Positions 55,725 to 61,552 of a DNA stretch of 64,000 nt are shown here, piece by piece. The translations under genes were made by a program, and so were the position numbers. Positions within the stretch are counted from its first letter, which is position 1. Each line of letters starts with the position of its first letter. The stretch is from a virus. Its lineage: Duplodnaviria > Caudoviricetes. The stretch covers positions 64,001-128,000 of IMG/VR virus record IMGVR_UViG_3300033120_000574. One strand, 5' to 3'. The notes under the pieces are model-generated. The model made no database searches. It was not told where the DNA came from and saw only the letters and a list, made by a program, of their open reading frames with translations.

Positions 55725-56020
55725 GCTTTCCTGTGAATGGTCAGTGGTCCAACGTTCCTAGGCTTTCCAAAGGTAGCTTTGGTTAGAAATATCAAGTTAT
55801 TTATTGGTGCATGTTTCGGCAGCTTCAAACTCAAATGAAAGATTTTACCTATCTCTACAGTGTCCTTGAGTGATAGAACGACTTCGTTGTTTAAAAACAC
55901 CAAACCAGCTTGTAAGTATCTCTTACTTTCACGAATACTAGTACACATACCAGACAGGTCTAGTACTCTGTAAATTTCTGCATGAGTTGCAGTTCTGCTA
56001 GGCCAAGCCACGTATAGCAT
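55721..56020 (-). CDS. S4-like RNA-binding domain protein
   Basis: L...GMCTSIRESKRYLQAGLVFLNNEVV matches the S4 pattern; ATG at 56020. Confidence 0.65.
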   Translation of the reverse strand: MLYVAWPSRTATHAEIYRVLDLSGMCTSIRESKRYLQAGLVFLNNEVVLSLKDTVEIGKIFHLSLKLPKHAPINNLIFLTKATFGKPRNVGPLTIHRKA

Positions 56021-56026
56021 AGTGTG

Positions 56027-56035
56027 AGTATAGCA
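56027..56035 (-). promoter_or_regulatory. extended -10 promoter (possible leaderless mRNA)
   Basis: TG-C-TATACT 6 nt upstream of the ATG at 56020; no SD. Confidence 0.45.
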
Positions 56036-56036
56036 C

Positions 56037-56070
56037 AAACAGAAATACCCACGAATGTTATTCGTGGGTT
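56037..56070 (-). terminator. terminator of the tRNA operon
   Basis: ACCCACGAA-TAACA-TTCGTGGGT followed by ATTTCTGTTT. Confidence 0.65.
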
Positions 56071-56088
56071 ACTTTTGTGAGTTAGTAG

Positions 56089-56160
56089 TTTCCAGTGAAG
56101 GACTCGAACCTTCACAGACTTCTTCAGAGGAAGTTGACCTGCCAATTAGTCGAACCGGAA
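56089..56160 (-). tRNA. tRNA-Gln(CTG)
   Basis: ACTTC-CT-CTG-AA-GAAGT anticodon arm; GGTTCGAGTCC T arm. Confidence 0.85.
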
Positions 56161-56175
56161 ATATAATAATCTCGA

Positions 56176-56246
56176 AGCCCCGGACGAGAATCGAACTCAT
56201 GTCTCTCGCTTACAAGACGAGGGTACTGCCATTGTACTAACAGGGC
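56176..56246 (-). tRNA. tRNA-Thr(TGT)
   Basis: CTCGT-CT-TGT-AA-GCGAG. Confidence 0.85.
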
Positions 56247-56250
56247 AAAG

Positions 56251-56318
56251 AGGGTCTAGTGAGAATCGAACTCACCAACAATGTTTTGCAGACATCGGTC
56301 AAACCATTTGTTAGACCC
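56251..56318 (-). tRNA. tRNA-Cys(GCA), reduced D arm
   Basis: GATGT-CT-GCA-AA-ACATT; U73. Confidence 0.75.
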
Positions 56319-56324
56319 AAAAAT

Positions 56325-56398
56325 TGGAGCGTCTTGCGGGGATCAAACCCGCGCCGAGAGTTTGGAAAACTCCTATGCTATCGCTACACCAAAGACGC
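56325..56398 (-). tRNA. tRNA-Gly(TCC)
   Basis: GGAGT-TT-TCC-AA-ACTCT; encoded CCA. Confidence 0.8.
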
Positions 56399-56402
56399 AA
56401 AG

Positions 56403-56474
56403 TACCTTGTAGGAGAGTTGAACTCCTCTTACCCGATTGAAAGTCGAGAGTCCTTTCCGATAGACGAACAAGGC
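56403..56474 (-). tRNA. tRNA-Glu(TTC)
   Basis: CTCGA-CT-TTC-AA-TCGGG. Confidence 0.85.
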
Positions 56475-56477
56475 ATA

Positions 56478-56549
56478 TGACCCTATTGGGAATCTAACCC
56501 AACTTACCTAGTTGAGAACCAGGCTTCTTGAACACTAGAAGATAGGGCC
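56478..56549 (-). tRNA. tRNA-Glu(CTC)
   Basis: CCTGG-TT-CTC-AA-CTAGG; atypical T loop TTAGATT. Confidence 0.7.
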
Positions 56550-56550
56550 G

Positions 56551-56992
56551 TGGCACGTGTACGAGATGCTTTCAAAGGGCACCCACATTATGTACACATT
56601 TTTAAGAACCATGTAGCGATTGTAGTAAGTTTGGAGTCTGCTACATCTGTTGCTTTAACCCACAACAGGGATAGTAACATTCCTTATACACAACTGTGTC
56701 CTCACGACAACCTTTTAAAAACTACGTAGCAGACCCATGCGAAGCAGGGATTTACACCCTTGCAGCGTCACCGCGAACTTCTACACATACCTTAAGTTAT
56801 ATGTGCTGCGTCTTTTCAAAAACTACTTGGCGATATACTAACTGCTTTGTGTAGTTTTACCTACGCCATCTGCCTCGCACGACACCGCGAGTGTTCCTGT
56901 ATATCTTTAAAGAACCAATTTTGAGCACACAAGCAGTCAAATATATCGAGGTCTCACGCCCAACTTTGACAACCGCAAGGTTTTTAAGAACT
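56551..56992 (-). ncRNA. tandem array of 4-5 acceptor-stem-like small RNAs
   Basis: Each unit follows a GTTYTT(T)RAA leader; four close with a 7-12 bp terminal helix plus G-CCA or G-CTA; no cloverleaf. Confidence 0.55.
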
Positions 56993-56994
56993 CA

Positions 56995-57080
56995 CGAAGA
57001 GCTGAATACTCGAAATCCACACCCTTTTGAGGTGCCATCTGTTTAGCAAACAGTGCTAGTTCCTAACTAGTTAACTCTTC
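56995..57080 (-). tRNA. tRNA-Ser(GCT), 8/4 fold
   Basis: CTGT-TT-GCT-AA-ACAG; long variable arm; 8 bp acceptor and 4 bp T stem. Confidence 0.8.
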
Positions 57081-57108
57081 ATTTTAAGAACCACCAACAA
57101 CGTTGGTA

Positions 57109-57195
57109 TGGAGAACAGACGAATCGAACGCCACACCCTTTTGAGGTGCCCACTCACTTCCAATGAGGTCCAGTCCCAGACATGGTTTACTCTCC
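57109..57195 (-). tRNA. tRNA-Ser(GGA), 8/4 fold
   Basis: CTCA-TT-GGA-AG-TGAG; long variable arm. Confidence 0.75.
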
Positions 57196-57198
57196 AAA

Positions 57199-57284
57199 CG
57201 GTAGATAGAGGTATCGCGCCCCACACCCGAAAGGGTGCACACTGGTTTCAAAGCAGGTTCGGAGGCTTCTCCGATTTATCTACC
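57199..57284 (-). tRNA. tRNA-Ser(TGA), 8/4 fold
   Basis: TT-TGA-AA loop; GGTAGATA/TATCTACC acceptor; 6 bp D stem. Confidence 0.7.
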
Positions 57285-57286
57285 AA

Positions 57287-57829
57287 TCAACTTTCATCTA
57301 CCGCAAGATTCCAGTACAAGTAATCTTTCCACTCTTTTGGAGAGTTTGATAGACTTACCATGACTTTCTTCTTAGGAGACCAATCCGGTTTCGTAGGAAC
57401 ACTGTGCAGGCGCATCTTAGCCTCTGCAGGAGTCCTATCCGCCTTCTTACTGTTGCAAGTCAAGCAAGACGTTGTGATGTTGTCCCACACTGTCTTACCA
57501 CCCTTAGAGCGGGGCAAAACGTGGTCATACGTCAACTTGCTCATAGTGAATGGCTTGTTGCAGTACTGACAAGTGTAGTTGTCTCTTGCGAAGACATTCA
57601 TCCTAGAGAACTTGATTTTCTCTTTCTTAGGCTTTACATAGGTTGTCAACCTAAGTACAGCAGGACAACACATAGTGTGATTTGCACTCTTTAGTTCAAA
57701 ATCAGGGTATTCCTCTATTATGTCAACTTTCTTCTCAAACCAAAGAACTATGGCTCTTTGCCAAGTAAGAATCTTCATTGGCTCGTACGTAGCGTTCAGT
57801 AACAAGACTTTATGTTCTTCAGCTAGCAT
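57287..57829 (-). CDS. HNH endonuclease (McrA-like)
   Basis: VLLLNATYEP, RD.YTCQYC, T.DHVLPRSKGG..VWDN...C..CN..K. Confidence 0.9.
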   Translation of the reverse strand: MLAEEHKVLLLNATYEPMKILTWQRAIVLWFEKKVDIIEEYPDFELKSANHTMCCPAVLRLTTYVKPKKEKIKFSRMNVFARDNYTCQYCNKPFTMSKLTYDHVLPRSKGGKTVWDNITTSCLTCNSKKADRTPAEAKMRLHSVPTKPDWSPKKKVMVSLSNSPKEWKDYLYWNLAVDES

Positions 57830-57832
57830 AAA

Positions 57833-57905
57833 TCCACCTGGAGGGAGTTGAACCCACTCATGTCCGCTTATAAGACGGATGCCTAAACCGTTTGGCTTCA
57901 GGTGG
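57833..57905 (-). tRNA. tRNA-Ile(TAT)
   Basis: TCCGT-CT-TAT-AA-GCGGA. Confidence 0.8.
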
Positions 57906-57908
57906 GTA

Positions 57909-57978
57909 TATCAGCATCGAGAATCGAACTCGAACGTTGAAGCGTATGAAACCTAACGACTAGCCACAGTATGCTGAT
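57909..57978 (-). tRNA. tRNA with CAT anticodon (Met or Ile2), reduced D arm
   Basis: ATCAGCA/TGCTGAT acceptor; AGGT-TT-CAT-AC-GCTT. Confidence 0.6.
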
Positions 57979-58003
57979 ATGCAGAGAACCTGCAAGGGAA
58001 AAT

Positions 58004-58077
58004 TGGGAGCGATCGCCGGAGTTGAACACGGTCCTGAAGCTTATGAGACTTCGGTGCAGCCCTTACACCACCACGCC
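58004..58077 (-). tRNA. tRNA-Met(CAT), weak acceptor and T stems
   Basis: GAAGT-CT-CAT-AA-GCTTC; encoded CCA. Confidence 0.6.
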
Positions 58078-58078
58078 A

Positions 58079-58121
58079 TGTCCTAGGAGGGATTCGAACC
58101 CTCATGCTTTCGCTACACCAA
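58079..58121 (-). pseudogene. 3' half of a disrupted tRNA-Leu
   Basis: Variable arm GC-GAAA-GC, T arm GAGGG-TTCGAAT-CCCTC, acceptor strand CTAGGAC-A; no anticodon loop. Confidence 0.7.
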
Positions 58122-58149
58122 GTAAAGGACAACCAAAACAAGTATGCTA

Positions 58150-58234
58150 TAGAAACGAAGAGATTTGAACTCTTATGCACCTCACAGTGCGTTTGCGTTT
58201 GAAGCAAATGTGTAAACCATTCCACCACGTTTCC
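58150..58234 (-). tRNA. tRNA-Leu(CAA)
   Basis: TTTGC-TT-CAA-AC-GCAAA; long variable arm. Confidence 0.85.
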
Positions 58235-58244
58235 AAATAAATTT

Positions 58245-58673
58245 ATGCGAAAAAAGTATTCAAGGTACACTAAAGAGCAACTAGAACCTCTTGTTAAAGA
58301 GAGCAAATCCTATGCGGAAGTTATAAAGAAACTAGGTCTTAGGATTTGTGGAGGTAACTACGTGCTCCTACAAAGAAATATAGACAAGTTTCAAATCAGC
58401 TGTGAACATATGCTATTCCAAGCAGCGAACCAAGGAAGAGAATTTGTAAAATATGAAGAAATTTCGACGCACGCAGCTATAAAGAAACGTATTCTACGAG
58501 AACGAGGACTTGTCTGTGAGGGGTGTAATTTAGACACCTGGTTAGGTAAGCCTATTACCTTAGAGATGGATCATATAGATGGGGACAACAGGAACAACAC
58601 AAAAACAAACATAAGAATTTTGTGTCCAAATTGTCACAGTCAAACTCCAACTTGGAAGAACAACAAGAAGTAA
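58245..58673 (+). CDS. HNH endonuclease, antisense to the tRNA operon
   Basis: CEGC...LEMDHIDGDNRNN...NIRILCPNCHSQT. Confidence 0.9.
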   Translation: MRKKYSRYTKEQLEPLVKESKSYAEVIKKLGLRICGGNYVLLQRNIDKFQISCEHMLFQAANQGREFVKYEEISTHAAIKKRILRERGLVCEGCNLDTWLGKPITLEMDHIDGDNRNNTKTNIRILCPNCHSQTPTWKNNKK

Positions 58674-58695
58674 GTACCAGTTCCACCACACGGAC
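58674..58695 (-). pseudogene. 5' half of a disrupted tRNA-Leu
   Basis: GTCCGTG-TGGTGGAACTGGTAC (Leu-type D arm) abutting the HNH stop codon. Confidence 0.65.
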
Positions 58696-58783
58696 ATTCA
58701 AAATTGGTTGCCAGTTTAACTGTTACGTAAAGCACTTCTAGCAAGAAGCTTAGATTTATATTGTCACCCTAATCCAAGGGTGT

Positions 58784-58863
58784 TGCAGTTGGAGAGATTC
58801 GAACTCTCATACCGAAGCGGGAAATCTTAAAGATCCTGTGTATGCCAATTCCACCACAACTGC
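58784..58863 (-). tRNA. tRNA-Leu(TAA)
   Basis: TT-TAA-GA loop, Leu-type D arm; weak anticodon stem. Confidence 0.75.
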
Positions 58864-58877
58864 ATTTAGTTTATCAA

Positions 58878-58961
58878 TGACACAGGTGAGAGTCGAACTC
58901 ACAAGAGGAATTACCCACAACAGTTTCTAAGACTGCCCGCTCGCCGTTGGCGTACTGTGCC
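58878..58961 (-). tRNA. tRNA-Leu(TAG)
   Basis: GCAGT-CT-TAG-AA-ACTGT. Confidence 0.85.
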
Positions 58962-58966
58962 GTAAA

Positions 58967-59038
58967 TACCAGATTAGGGAATCGAACCCAACTATATCAC
59001 TGTGTAAAAGTGGTGCCTACCCAGTCAGCTTATCTGGC
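58967..59038 (-). tRNA. tRNA-Val(TAC)
   Basis: CACT-TT-TAC-AC-AGTG. Confidence 0.8.
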
Positions 59039-59043
59039 ATACT

Positions 59044-59115
59044 CGTTGTTGAAGAGAATCGAACTCTTATTTAAACTTTAGGAAAGTCTTGCTCTATCCG
59101 TTGAACTACAACAAC
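59044..59115 (-). tRNA. tRNA-Arg(CCT)
   Basis: AGACT-TT-CCT-AA-AGTTT. Confidence 0.85.
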
Positions 59116-59118
59116 AGA

Positions 59119-59143
59119 CGCTTTTGTTTGGACTTGAACCTAC
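59119..59143 (-). pseudogene. 3' end of a disrupted tRNA-Arg
   Basis: GG-TTCAAGT-CCAAA-CAAAAGC-G; acceptor strand pairs 7/7 with GCTTTTG at 59814-59820. Confidence 0.75.
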
Positions 59144-59146
59144 CAC

Positions 59147-59175
59147 TTGACGCCAAATCAAAATTGAATTATACC
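59147..59175 (+). promoter_or_regulatory. candidate promoter for the antisense HNH gene
   Basis: TTGACG-17 nt-TATACC. Confidence 0.4.
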
Positions 59176-59249
59176 GTCCTTGGTAGGAATCGAACCTACA
59201 AAATTGCTTGTTTAGAAGACAAGTGTTCTATCCGTTGAACTACAAGGAC
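59175..59249 (-). tRNA. tRNA-Arg(TCT)
   Basis: CTTGT-CT-TCT-AA-ACAAG. Confidence 0.88.
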
Positions 59250-59253
59250 AAAA

Positions 59254-59793
59254 ATGATATCAGTAACATGTGAAAACTGTAGCAAAGAATTCTTCAAGAA
59301 TAAGTCTGAAGCTGCTCGGAGCCCTAGACACTTTTGTAGCAGGTCTTGTGCAAATAGCAAGCACAACACCGAGAAAGCAAAACGAAGTAAGAAGCAAAGA
59401 ACATGTACTCTATGTACAAAGAGTTACATACAAACAAAAGCGAGACGCAAGATATGTGAAGTTTGTTTTGTTCCACCACTCTGTAAAGATAACATGACAC
59501 TCAGTCAGTGTAAGGACAAATTAAGTGTTCAAGGCAAGCACCCATCATGGTACACTGTGCACGTAAGAGGACATAATAGAACGAAGAATAAAAAGCTAGC
59601 TACTAGCTGCCAGAAATGTGGGTACAGTAAACATGTAGAGTGTTGTCATATCAAACCAGTCGCAAGTTTTGAAGGCAATGCAACGTTGGCTGAAATTAAT
59701 CATGTGGACAATATTGTTGTTTTATGTAGAAATTGTCACTGGGAGTTTGACCACAATCAACTAAGCATAGTAGATATTCCAAAGCGTAAGTAA
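59254..59793 (+). CDS. HNH endonuclease with N-terminal zinc fingers, antisense to the tRNA operon
   Basis: CENC...FCSRSC; CQKCGY...ECCHIKP...N..DN.VVLCRNCHWEFD. Confidence 0.9.
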   Translation: MISVTCENCSKEFFKNKSEAARSPRHFCSRSCANSKHNTEKAKRSKKQRTCTLCTKSYIQTKARRKICEVCFVPPLCKDNMTLSQCKDKLSVQGKHPSWYTVHVRGHNRTKNKKLATSCQKCGYSKHVECCHIKPVASFEGNATLAEINHVDNIVVLCRNCHWEFDHNQLSIVDIPKRK

Positions 59794-59795
59794 TT

Positions 59796-59820
59796 ACGCT
59801 ATCCTTTGTGCTACAAAAGC
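59796..59820 (-). pseudogene. 5' half of a disrupted tRNA-Arg
   Basis: GCTTTTG-TAGCACAAAGGATAGCGT (Arg-type D loop GGATA), next to the HNH stop codon. Confidence 0.75.
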
Positions 59821-59823
59821 AAG

Positions 59824-59896
59824 CCTAGGTAGAGGGATTTGAACCCCTCATTTCACGGTTCGTAGCCGCGCGTGGTATCCGTTACACTATACCTAG
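59824..59896 (-). tRNA. tRNA-Arg(ACG)
   Basis: CGCGG-CT-ACG-AA-CCGTG. Confidence 0.85.
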
Positions 59897-59899
59897 ATA

Positions 59900-59971
59900 A
59901 GCCGCCACAGGTACTTGAAACCTGTTTTCCTCCATACCAAGGAGGTACATCACCATATATGTTTTAGCGGC
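59900..59971 (-). tRNA. tRNA-Thr(GGT)
   Basis: CCTCC-TT-GGT-AT-GGAGG. Confidence 0.8.
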
Positions 59972-59974
59972 ACA

Positions 59975-60047
59975 TGGACAAGACTGGACTCGAACCAGCG
60001 GTCTTCTGAGTGCAAGTCAGAGGTTTTCCCAACTAAACTACTCGCCC
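59975..60047 (-). tRNA. tRNA-Ala(TGC)
   Basis: TCTGA-CT-TGC-AC-TCAGA; G3:U70 present. Confidence 0.88.
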
Positions 60048-60054
60048 AATTAAA

Positions 60055-60172
60055 ACTGACGAAATTGTTACCATTACAACACATTGCCACTGCAGTGAAT
60101 TCAAGACTAATCAAGCAAAATTACGCCCATAGTCTTAACAATGCTGGGAATCGAACCCAGGTCTTCGTACTT
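60055..60172 (-). ncRNA. circularly permuted tRNA-like RNA (YrlA/Y-RNA-like)
   Basis: Order is T arm, internally closed acceptor-like stem, D arm; the termini ACGAAG and TTTCGT pair. Confidence 0.6.
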
Positions 60173-60173
60173 C

Positions 60174-60241
60174 CACGTTATATAGGAATCGAACCTATGA
60201 TGAAAAGTTTTGGAGGCTTCTCTGTGCCCAGCACCTAACGT
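60174..60241 (-). tRNA. tRNA-Trp(CCA), reduced D arm
   Basis: CT-CCA-AA loop; D arm GTGC-TGG-GCAC; G73. Confidence 0.7.
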
Positions 60242-60259
60242 ATACAAGCTAAGATAAGA

Positions 60260-60331
60260 AGTGACTGACGGGAATTGAACCCGCTAATACCTGATTCACA
60301 ATCAAGCGCTTGGCCATTTAGCTTCAGCCAC
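60260..60331 (-). tRNA. tRNA-His(GTG)
   Basis: CTTGA-TT-GTG-AA-TCAGG. Confidence 0.85.
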
Positions 60332-60332
60332 A

Positions 60333-60403
60333 CGCTCCATAGGGGAATCGAACCCCTCTCAACTTGGAGACAACAAGTCCGCAACCCAGTTGCGCAATGG
60401 AGC
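60333..60403 (-). tRNA. tRNA-Asp(GTC)
   Basis: ACTTG-TT-GTC-TC-CAAGT; G73. Confidence 0.8.
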
Positions 60404-60458
60404 AGGCACGGCATCTTACTTTTTTGGGGTGCGTCAGCTAGCCGTAATCGACCCACAG

Positions 60459-60531
60459 TGCCATCGACTGGACTCGAACCAGCATTTATGTCCGGTTAAA
60501 AGCCGGGTACCAACCTTTAGGTGACGATGGC
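60459..60531 (-). tRNA. tRNA-Lys(TTT)
   Basis: CCGG-CT-TTT-AA-CCGG. Confidence 0.85.
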
Positions 60532-60534
60532 AAA

Positions 60535-60609
60535 TCCAAGCAGAAGGAATCGAACCTGTCAATCTCTCGCTTATCAGGCAAGCGTATATAACCACTATAC
60601 TATGCTTGG
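60535..60609 (-). tRNA. tRNA-Ile(GAT)
   Basis: CTTGC-CT-GAT-AA-GCGAG. Confidence 0.85.
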
Positions 60610-60614
60610 GTTAG

Positions 60615-60686
60615 TCCAGCTAAGAAGATTCGAACTTCTATTGTCCTGTACCCAAAACAGGTGGGTTACCGTTACCCTATAGCTAG
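60615..60686 (-). tRNA. tRNA-Pro(TGG)
   Basis: CCTGT-TT-TGG-GT-ACAGG; C1-G72. Confidence 0.85.
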
Positions 60687-60692
60687 ATGAAA

Positions 60693-60777
60693 TGCCCCAT
60701 GGAAGGAATCGAACCTCACAGCCTAACGGCACGTGGTTTACAGCCACGGGGATGTTCCAACATCCGGATCACAGGAC
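60693..60777 (-). tRNA. tRNA-Tyr(GTA), atypical fold
   Basis: CGTGG-CT-GTA-AA-CCACG; extended D stem GGATGTT/AACATCC. Confidence 0.7.
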
Positions 60778-60781
60778 AAAG

Positions 60782-60854
60782 TGCAACCTACTGGAATCGA
60801 ACCAATTTGTCTTGTTCTTCAGACAAGCGCATTAACCATAATTGCTTAGGTTGC
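60782..60854 (-). tRNA. tRNA-Phe(GAA)
   Basis: CTTGT-CT-GAA-GA-ACAAG. Confidence 0.85.
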
Positions 60855-60859
60855 ATTGA

Positions 60860-60934
60860 CTGGGACGGCAGGAGTCGAACCTGCAATCACTATATTAACA
60901 GTATAGCCGTCGCGCCGATATGACGAACATCCCA
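60860..60934 (-). tRNA. tRNA-Asn(GTT)
   Basis: CTATA-CT-GTT-AA-TATAG; G73. Confidence 0.85.
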
Positions 60935-60951
60935 ATAATCTAACTCTTATT

Positions 60952-60965
60952 CAGTTTTCAAAAAG
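60952..60965 (-). promoter_or_regulatory. rrn boxA-like antitermination motif
   Basis: CTTTTTGAAAACTG resembles the TCTTTGAAAAC boxA of many rRNA leaders. Confidence 0.45.
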
Positions 60966-61041
60966 TTTCCAGGGTAGGATTCGAACCTACGACCATCAGT
61001 TTCAAAGACTGAGTACACGTGCCAGCAGCGTAGACCTGGAA
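60966..61041 (-). tRNA. tRNA-Gln(TTG)
   Basis: TCAGT-CT-TTG-AA-ACTGA. Confidence 0.8.
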
Positions 61042-61042
61042 G

Positions 61043-61115
61043 TGGTAACGAAGGGAATCGAACCCTCTATGGCTTGCTTAAGAGGCAAGTGCTTATCCAG
61101 TTTAGCTTCGTTACC
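61043..61115 (-). tRNA. tRNA-Lys(CTT)
   Basis: CTTGC-CT-CTT-AA-GCAAG. Confidence 0.88.
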
Positions 61116-61144
61116 AAGAAGTAAGAGAACATCTTACTTCGGAT

Positions 61145-61173
61145 ATGCTATCACTTATCTTTTTCGTTGTCAA
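61145..61173 (-). promoter_or_regulatory. sigma70-type promoter of the tRNA operon
   Basis: TTGACA-17 nt-TAGCAT with extended TG, about 30 nt upstream of the first tRNA. Confidence 0.7.
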
Positions 61174-61552
61174 GAGAAATCGTAGCTAGGCGCTTTCTAG
61201 TATTCTCTATTCGCTTTGCTAGCCTGGAGTAGCCTAGTATGACTACTTTTGGCAGACCTGAGTCTTTTGTCAAGGCCAATTTGTCGGAGACAACACGAAG
61301 CATGTCAGGTACACGTGTAAACGAAGGCTCAGCTAAGAAGATGCAGGCTGCTGCCAACTCACCACTCAAAGCATCCACCAAGTTCTCCAGTTCGTCAAGG
61401 TCAGGATTCTCTTTTGTTGTCATCCCGGTATCTGCAAACATCTGGTGTAATGCTTGTGCAAACGCAACTGCGTCAGCTGCATACTCCAAAGCTTCCTTAC
61501 TTGGAGAAGATGACTCTAGAGACTCTATGATCTTGGAATAATTATCACTCAT
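61151..61552 (-). CDS. hypothetical helical protein
   Basis: 133 aa, ATGA-coupled to the RHH gene. Confidence 0.65.
   Translation of the reverse strand: MSDNYSKIIESLESSSPSKEALEYAADAVAFAQALHQMFADTGMTTKENPDLDELENLVDALSGELAAACIFLAEPSFTRVPDMLRVVSDKLALTKDSGLPKVVILGYSRLAKRIENTRKRLATISLDNEKDK

Follow-up and report, generated by a model that had tools for sequence, protein, structure and literature searches.

Homing endonuclease genes that sit in essential genes are thought to survive only within spliced introns or inteins, and are otherwise found between genes. Group I introns with homing endonuclease genes are known from the anticodon loops of bacterial transfer RNA (tRNA) genes, namely those for tRNA-Leu(UAA), tRNA-fMet, tRNA-Arg(CCU) and tRNA-Ile. 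Intronless homing is represented by SegF and SegG of phage T4, and the 'cleave-and-rescue' and 'home-and-rescue' gene drives are synthetic systems. Phage T5 is said to encode the HNH endonucleases F-TflI, F-TflII and F-TflIV in its tRNA gene region, as reportedly described by Akulenko and colleagues in 2004. SegB of phages T4 and T6 is a free-standing GIY-YIG homing endonuclease located in a tRNA gene cluster (PMC2330249; PMC13096335). The T-arm motif is the place where it cleaves tRNA genes, and adjacent tRNA genes are carried along with it (PMC2330249). Linkage to tRNA genes is widespread among its homologues, with no isotype being preferred (PMC13096335). Here we analyse a tRNA-Arg locus in 64,000 nucleotides (nt) of viral DNA (Duplodnaviria; Caudoviricetes), positions 64,001 to 128,000 of the IMG/VR record IMGVR_UViG_3300033120_000574; this whole stretch is called the window below. 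We propose, with a probability of roughly 70%, that a mobile unit of about 650 base pairs (bp; roughly 59145-59796) lies there inside a resident tRNA-Arg(TCT) gene. The unit would consist of a promoter, a tRNA-Arg(TCT) on the opposite strand and an HNH homing endonuclease gene, and the lost function would be replaced by the carried tRNA, not restored by splicing.

The window is part of a 139-kilobase (kb) viral metagenome record with an estimated completeness of 82%. It contains a run of 25 tRNA genes on the minus strand (56088-61115), among which three HNH genes are interspersed. Read in the sense of the tRNAs, the slot under study consists of tRNA-Arg(ACG), 3 nt, a 5' tRNA piece, an antisense HNH open reading frame (ORF), 4 nt, an intact tRNA-Arg(TCT), a spacer of 29-30 nt, a 3' tRNA piece, 3 nt and tRNA-Arg(CCT). 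The flanking genes, tRNA-Arg(ACG) upstream (59824-59896, minus strand) and tRNA-Arg(CCT) downstream (59044-59115, minus strand), were called by ARAGORN and Rfam and stand in the same order as in the related phages G001 and G003. Reading the sequence directly, we assign the 5' piece (59797-59820, minus strand; 24-25 nt) to positions 1 to about 25 of a resident tRNA-Arg. It comprises the 7-nt acceptor strand GCTTTTG, TA and a D arm with an Arg-type loop (AAAGGATA), the stem of which contains one A-C mismatch. The 3' piece (59119-59143, minus strand) comprises a T arm with the loop TTCAAGT, the acceptor strand CAAAAGC and the discriminator G; its T stem is paired at only 3/5 positions. The acceptor strands of the two pieces form 7/7 Watson-Crick pairs, and each piece lies exactly 3 nt from the neighbouring tRNA, which is the usual spacing in the array.

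Across the window, the T-arm motif GGTTCRANTCC was matched 19 times against 0.09 expected, always on the minus strand and in the tRNA array, and the match at 59130-59140 falls outside every called tRNA. The Arg-type D-arm motif yielded four matches (0.21 expected), corresponding to three Arg tRNAs and the 5' piece. Because these counts are far above expectation and the 3-nt spacing is exact, a chance origin of the two pieces is excluded. No anticodon arm of the split gene could be identified between them. The pieces were also joined at all break points and submitted to ARAGORN at a low threshold, which returned 167 calls whose anticodons varied (Pro, Gln, Leu and others); as evidence for an anticodon arm this approach was rejected, since it does not discriminate. 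The 30-nt spacer resembles tRNAs no more than shuffled sequence does and holds a hairpin of 4-5 bp with a 7-nt loop; we read it as a promoter region and not as a tRNA relic. An integrase-type tRNA island was not recognised at the slot, where the HNH gene is the only ORF between the pieces and the pieces are non-overlapping halves without a direct 3' repeat. The original prediction, made from the letters of the window, had described a tRNA-Arg gene split into a 5' and a 3' piece, with its anticodon arm lost and only an HNH gene, an intact tRNA-Arg(TCT) and a promoter-like spacer in between. All of this was borne out, with the incompletely paired T stem and the D-stem mismatch as minor corrections, and the coordinates it gave for the pieces were correct to within 1-3 nt.

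Related phages were identified through the major capsid protein, and three records in which this protein is 84-86% identical carry tRNA arrays. In G001, a complete genome of 169 kb with terminal repeats, and in G003, which is near-identical to it at this locus, the array reads Ala, Arg(ACG), Arg(TCT), Arg(CCT), Leu(TAG); the genes are 3 nt apart and the nuclease is absent. The occurrence of the HNH gene is thus sporadic, and the slot that it occupies in the window holds an intact tRNA gene in both relatives. An intact TCT gene is also present in G002. No HNH_2 gene was detected in the five related records G001-G005, with a search that recovers the copy of the window at an E-value of 4e-71. When the 5' piece was compared with 70 tRNAs from the window and its relatives, the TCT gene of G001 matched best, with 21/25 identical positions and a score of 17, whereas 200 shuffles reached 14 at most. 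Of 2.9 million viral contigs, only G001 and G003 matched a degenerate pattern of the 5' piece, in a scan from which the window's own record was possibly excluded. An empty-site allele in relatives had been predicted to begin with GCTTTTG; the slot is indeed occupied by an intact TCT gene in G001 and G003, but this gene starts with GCTTCTA. Scans with exact patterns (5' piece, 3' piece, end of the ACG tRNA, arm of the CCT tRNA) in the viral and metagenome collections returned nothing closer. A megablast search of the region against cultured phages gave no match, and a distant blastn search of it gave matches to single tRNAs only.

Because both pieces keep the 3-nt spacing of the array to the ACG and CCT genes, we consider that a single resident gene of the slot, most likely tRNA-Arg(TCT), was interrupted by foreign DNA of about 650 bp, with loss of its anticodon arm. 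In the 3' remnant, the T stem has the 5' strand GTAGG, which is identical to that of the carried tRNA and is unpaired with its own partner strand. This identity may reflect a crossover that took place within the conserved T arm.

The gene between the pieces (59254-59793, plus strand) is antisense to the tRNA operon and encodes a protein of 179 amino acids that matches the Pfam family HNH_2 (PF13391) with an E-value of 3e-9 and 36.9 bits, the cut-off being 21. Only HNH families match the window nuclease, and no GIY-YIG domain was found in it; a search against solved structures gave nothing useful (E-value 0.19). CxxC pairs are located in the N-terminal part of the protein and the HNH core in the C-terminal part. 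In an alignment with 15 homologues it retains all 22 invariant family residues as well as the C-terminal motif of the family; H127, H132, N149/N153 and H162 are invariant (alignment of 16 homologues). Therefore, as judged from these residues and the family's own C-terminus, the gene is intact and the tRNA remnant is limited to about 59796. It is the only member of its family in the genome. A putative terminator-like hairpin of 7 bp (59783-59800, plus strand) extends over its stop codon, is partly the antisense of the D stem of the remnant and is followed by a weak T run.

The carried tRNA-Arg(TCT) (59175-59249, minus strand; called by ARAGORN, 65 bits with the Rfam tRNA model) is the sole TCT tRNA of the genome, in which AGA makes up 20% of the Arg codons of long ORFs. 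By our own count, it is identical to the 5' remnant at 16/25 of the same positions, and it has no close relative among the sampled Arg tRNAs, to which its identity is at most 73%. Judging from these values, it was not copied recently from the resident gene.

The Shine-Dalgarno sequence of the HNH gene, AAGGA (59244-59248, plus strand; ATG 5 nt downstream), is the antisense of positions 2-6 of the carried tRNA, in agreement with the original prediction that the ribosome-binding site lies opposite the 5' end of that tRNA. A candidate promoter, read from the sequence as TTGACG (59147-59152), 17 nt and TATACC (59170-59175) on the plus strand, borders directly on the carried tRNA at its 3' end, pointing toward the HNH gene, so that the leader of the HNH messenger would be the antisense of the whole tRNA. 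This candidate, also part of the prediction, found mixed support. A simple promoter and terminator scan, with totals near shuffle expectation, does not list 59147-59175, while similar promoter-like hexamer pairs occur in the same place and orientation, toward the HNH gene, at three homologous loci (L007, L011 and L017).

HNH homologues were collected from 45 viral loci and several assembly contigs, all at 50% identity or below. Linkage was counted at 41 non-redundant loci, with a distance of 150 nt from the ORF as the limit. By this measure, 32 of the 41 loci have a linked tRNA or tRNA-like gene, and in 25 of the 32 it lies on the opposite strand from the HNH homologue. The nearest tRNA had the anticodon loop CTTCTAA (TCT) at 18 of the 32 loci, compared with 12% expected from the make-up of the same loci (binomial p = 3.7e-9). 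Additionally, the split layout of the window recurs at L002, L007 and L026, where a 5' piece, an antisense HNH gene, an embedded tRNA(TCT), a short spacer and a T arm with matching acceptor strand follow one another. The acceptor sequences of these split genes are unrelated to those of the window. At L002, the acceptor strands form 7/7 pairs, two of them G-T. The split gene of L007 has an Arg-type D loop and retains both strands of the anticodon stem, and its pieces close into a cloverleaf when the insert of 548 nt is taken out (ARAGORN intron mode). The predicted association of HNH homologues with tRNA-Arg, and the presence of the same HNH-tRNA pair in other genomes, are thereby confirmed.

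These loci bear on two further explanations. The split gene could still be functional, as a tRNA made from two pieces, as a processing signal with its ends paired in a long transcript, or through RNA ligation. The retained 7/7 acceptor pairing and the two anticodon-stem halves of L007 would fit such a role. In the window, however, the pieces lack an anticodon arm, pairing in the T stem is limited to 3/5 positions, the D stem has a mismatch and no ribozyme is present. An archaeal-type split tRNA is not indicated, as the anticodon stem is unrecognisable and low-threshold ARAGORN calls gave changing anticodons only; complementary leaders of the archaeal kind were not noticed, although no dedicated search was made. 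We regard a functional split gene as very unlikely. The second explanation is a chimeric join in a metagenome contig, which the origin of the record and its incomplete state (estimated at 82%) would allow. It is contradicted by junctions that lie away from long repeats, by the intact HNH reading frame and by the same architecture in independent samples and assemblies, and we consider an artefact of this kind extremely improbable.

Two homologous loci show a different arrangement. At L032 and L027, the HNH homologue lies antisense within a group I intron, which is inserted between T34 and C35 of tRNA-Arg(TCT). The intron of L032 (split gene at L032:2795-3559, minus strand) is about 690 nt long and was identified by Rfam (Intron_gpI, 54 bits), ARAGORN and reading of the exon junctions; that of L027 (split gene at L027:2563-3376, minus strand) measures about 741 nt and was identified by an ARAGORN intron call and its exon junctions. 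In a maximum-likelihood tree, the window enzyme groups with those of L084 and L002 (support 97/94), and L007, L026 and L011 form a second clade (100/98), with intron-borne members interspersed. The cases with split layout thus span two well-supported enzyme clades. Because of the intron-borne members at L027 and L032, the TCT enrichment and the split layouts, we conclude that this HNH family probably homes into tRNA-Arg(TCT) genes, with AGA decoding kept in differing ways. Some relatives of the enzyme splice, through group I introns at 34/35, and the form with a replacement tRNA is therefore a sister solution and not an isolated oddity.

The intron-borne relatives also raise the possibility that the unit is a dead relic: the nuclease would have entered tRNA-Arg(TCT) within a self-splicing intron, the ribozyme would later have been lost, and the inner tRNA would have been acquired or recombined afterwards. 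Antisense family members in group I introns at 34/35, as well as the interspersed position of intron-borne and tRNA-carrying forms in the enzyme tree, are in line with such a history. Against it, no group I match was obtained in 58900-60000 or 55900-61300 at E-values up to 10, and the 650 nt leave no room for a ribozyme, since 540 of them belong to the HNH gene, 75 to the tRNA and 29 to the promoter spacer. The resident gene is broken near positions 25 and 52 instead of 34/35, the window nuclease is intact, and the design without ribozyme is repeated at L002, L007 and L026. A decayed intron is thus unlikely. Candidate group I introns, permuted tRNAs and Y-RNA-like elements in the window amounted to sub-threshold noise.

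Alternatively, no targeting may have taken place, and the pieces may be debris of a fast-changing tRNA array, left by duplication, unequal recombination and decay, in which an HNH gene landed by chance. This is suggested by further orphan T arms, and degenerate elements that resemble tRNAs, in the array (58090, 60147, 60185 and 60705) and by the presence of three HNH genes among its tRNAs. Yet debris would hardly be expected to consist of non-overlapping pieces that pair 7/7 in exact 3-nt register with the slot of the intact TCT gene in the relatives, or to bracket exactly an HNH gene and a tRNA of the same anticodon. The repetition of the layout with other acceptor sequences in other phages and the enrichment of the nuclease family beside tRNA-Arg(TCT) speak against it as well, and we consider it quite unlikely.

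We therefore return to the mobile unit with a replacement tRNA, for which we envisage the following course. During a mixed infection, a phage lacking the unit would have its intact tRNA-Arg(TCT) gene cut or nicked by the nuclease at some point between the D and T arms, and repair of the break from the unit-carrying genome would copy the unit into the gene. The target gene would thereby be destroyed, with its two end pieces left behind, and the divergent carried tRNA-Arg(TCT), presumably uncut, would keep AGA decoding without splicing. The HNH messenger would start from the promoter at the 3' end of the carried tRNA, with a ribosome-binding site inside the antisense leader, and such a leader could hold nuclease expression low. 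The lost anticodon arm would call for an extra step, such as resection when the break was made or a deletion that came afterwards. The original prediction of a compact mobile unit that replaces its target tRNA with one of the same family is supported by the anatomy of the locus, the empty site of the relatives, the intact nuclease, the link of the family to tRNA-Arg(TCT) and the recurrent layout. The need for the carried tRNA, as the only TCT tRNA of a genome that uses AGA codons, and a second cassette of like design in the array also speak for it.

Several observations weigh against this proposal. An allele starting exactly with GCTTTTG was not found in the viral and metagenome collections. 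The 3' piece is identical to the TCT gene of G001 at only 14/22 positions and is nearer to the T arm of the carried tRNA (16/20). Because the anticodon arm is missing, insertion at one point is insufficient and the additional deletion or resection has to be invoked. The second hexamer of the promoter candidate ends in C and fails the scan. No HNH homologue above 48-50% identity was found among 5.8 billion proteins, and the split layout is not seen in all of the closest homologues (P0002, P0006 and P0008). Finally, the window sequence is a metagenome assembly, and we infer both the cleavage of the target and the present mobility of the unit, as well as the resistance of the carried tRNA and the regulation by the antisense leader.

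A second cassette of the same layout, with an unrelated HNH gene, is located in the same array (58079-58695, sequence reading). It consists of a Leu-type 5' piece (58695-58674, minus strand) that abuts the stop codon of the second HNH gene, the antisense HNH gene itself (58245-58673, plus strand), which is unrelated to that at 59254-59793, an intact tRNA-Leu(CAA) (58149-58235, minus strand), the 5' end of which abuts the start of the HNH gene, and an orphan T arm with acceptor strand (58121-58079, minus strand) recognised by the T-arm motif. The acceptor strands of this cassette are paired at only 5/7 positions. Further orphan T arms or weak tRNA-like elements that ARAGORN did not call (21-34 bits with Rfam) were noted at 60147-60157, 60174-60241, 60694-60777 and 56252-56318. 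The gap between Ala and His in the array is occupied by tRNA-Trp in the relative G001. A tRNA with the anticodon TTA, of the ochre suppressor type, is located at 58782-58864.

Other elements were observed at the homologous loci. Introns interrupt tRNA-Lys(TTT) at L002 (249 nt) and tRNA-Leu(TAA) at L019 (199 nt). Phage transfer-messenger RNA (tmRNA) genes adjoin HNH homologues at L021:3524-4163(-), L080:2884-3240(-) and L045:1927-2324(-), and L021 has a group I intron match (69 bits) located between its HNH and tmRNA genes.

About half of the tRNA(TCT) genes beside HNH homologues were missed by ARAGORN and share an odd build. Their order is acceptor stem, TA, 4 nt, anticodon arm, a short linker, 3 nt that pair with the earlier four, the D-loop-like sequence TAAYTGGA, 2-5 nt and T arm. 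This order gives the impression that segments 10-21 and 22-43 have been exchanged. In a set of 113 different sequences, 88 have a 3-bp helix of Watson-Crick pairs throughout, at least 10 covarying pair sets are represented, and 100 have an acceptor stem paired 7/7. The class was recognised in at least 120 viral contigs, of which only 15 have it beside an HNH gene of the window's family, and in 259 cultured phage records (Escherichia, Salmonella, Klebsiella), where it is mostly unannotated or labelled 'Undet' or 'OTHER'. Examples are L080:2799-2875(-), L006:2836-2910(-), L011:2879-2955(-), L002:2915-2992(-) and L205:1366-1445(+), the last located beside an HNH homologue in Erwinia phage Ep030. 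Our literature search found no paper on this tRNA-Arg(TCT) class. At L080, 22 nt from the 3' end of the odd tRNA(TCT) are present as an exact direct repeat on either side of the HNH homologue (1967-1988 and 2799-2820), and between the repeats (L080:2043-2079) lies a collapsed mini-tRNA consisting of acceptor strands and T arm only.

More tentatively, and with considerable doubt, the HNH_2 family as a whole might act as a natural 'home-and-rescue' drive on tRNA-Arg(UCU). Its members would cut near the anticodon arm, and the host would stay viable by one of three interchangeable means, namely an intron that splices itself out, an embedded replacement tRNA resistant to the nuclease, or duplication of the 3' end. 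The replacement would often be a rewired tRNA-Arg(UCU) with D-stem strands swapped around the anticodon arm, and its rearranged order may allow it to escape the nuclease or host anticodon nucleases. The antisense leader would couple nuclease expression to the tRNA.

If the proposal for the window is true, it adds a third strategy, in which an element inside an RNA gene kills that gene and pays with a spare copy, following the logic of engineered cleave-and-rescue drives. Such units would explain the tRNA fragments that litter phage arrays, the fast turnover of isoacceptors between related phages and the spread of foreign tRNA alleles. As intron-borne and tRNA-carrying members stand side by side in the family, the switch between splicing and replacement becomes open to study, and cultured phages with related enzymes, such as Erwinia phage Ep030, bring the idea within bench reach.

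A full-text literature search found no description of a unit of nuclease and replacement tRNA inside a split tRNA gene. Like the nucleases of group I introns, the window enzyme is encoded inside its presumed target tRNA gene and would disrupt its own recognition site; unlike those introns, which splice, the window unit has no ribozyme, a second complete tRNA would keep the function and the host gene appears dead. With SegF, SegG and the rescue drives it would share the principle that a sensitive allele of a needed gene is cut and a resistant copy is linked to the nuclease. SegF and SegG, however, swap alleles by means of homologous flanks and leave no broken target, and the rescue drives are engineered and act in diploid animals. 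The T5 enzymes resemble the window enzyme, by description and not by sequence, in being HNH proteins encoded among phage tRNA genes; to our knowledge, their description includes no split target tRNA with an embedded replacement. As in the case of SegB, a selfish nuclease gene resides within a phage tRNA cluster, and a dedicated replacement tRNA inside target remnants has not been described for SegB. SegB is a GIY-YIG enzyme that recognises a T-arm motif common to all tRNAs and is encoded between genes, whereas the window enzyme belongs to an HNH family tied to tRNA-Arg(TCT), usually in antisense, and its unit lies inside a split gene. We therefore rate the cassette as a variant within the homing endonucleases of phage tRNA clusters.

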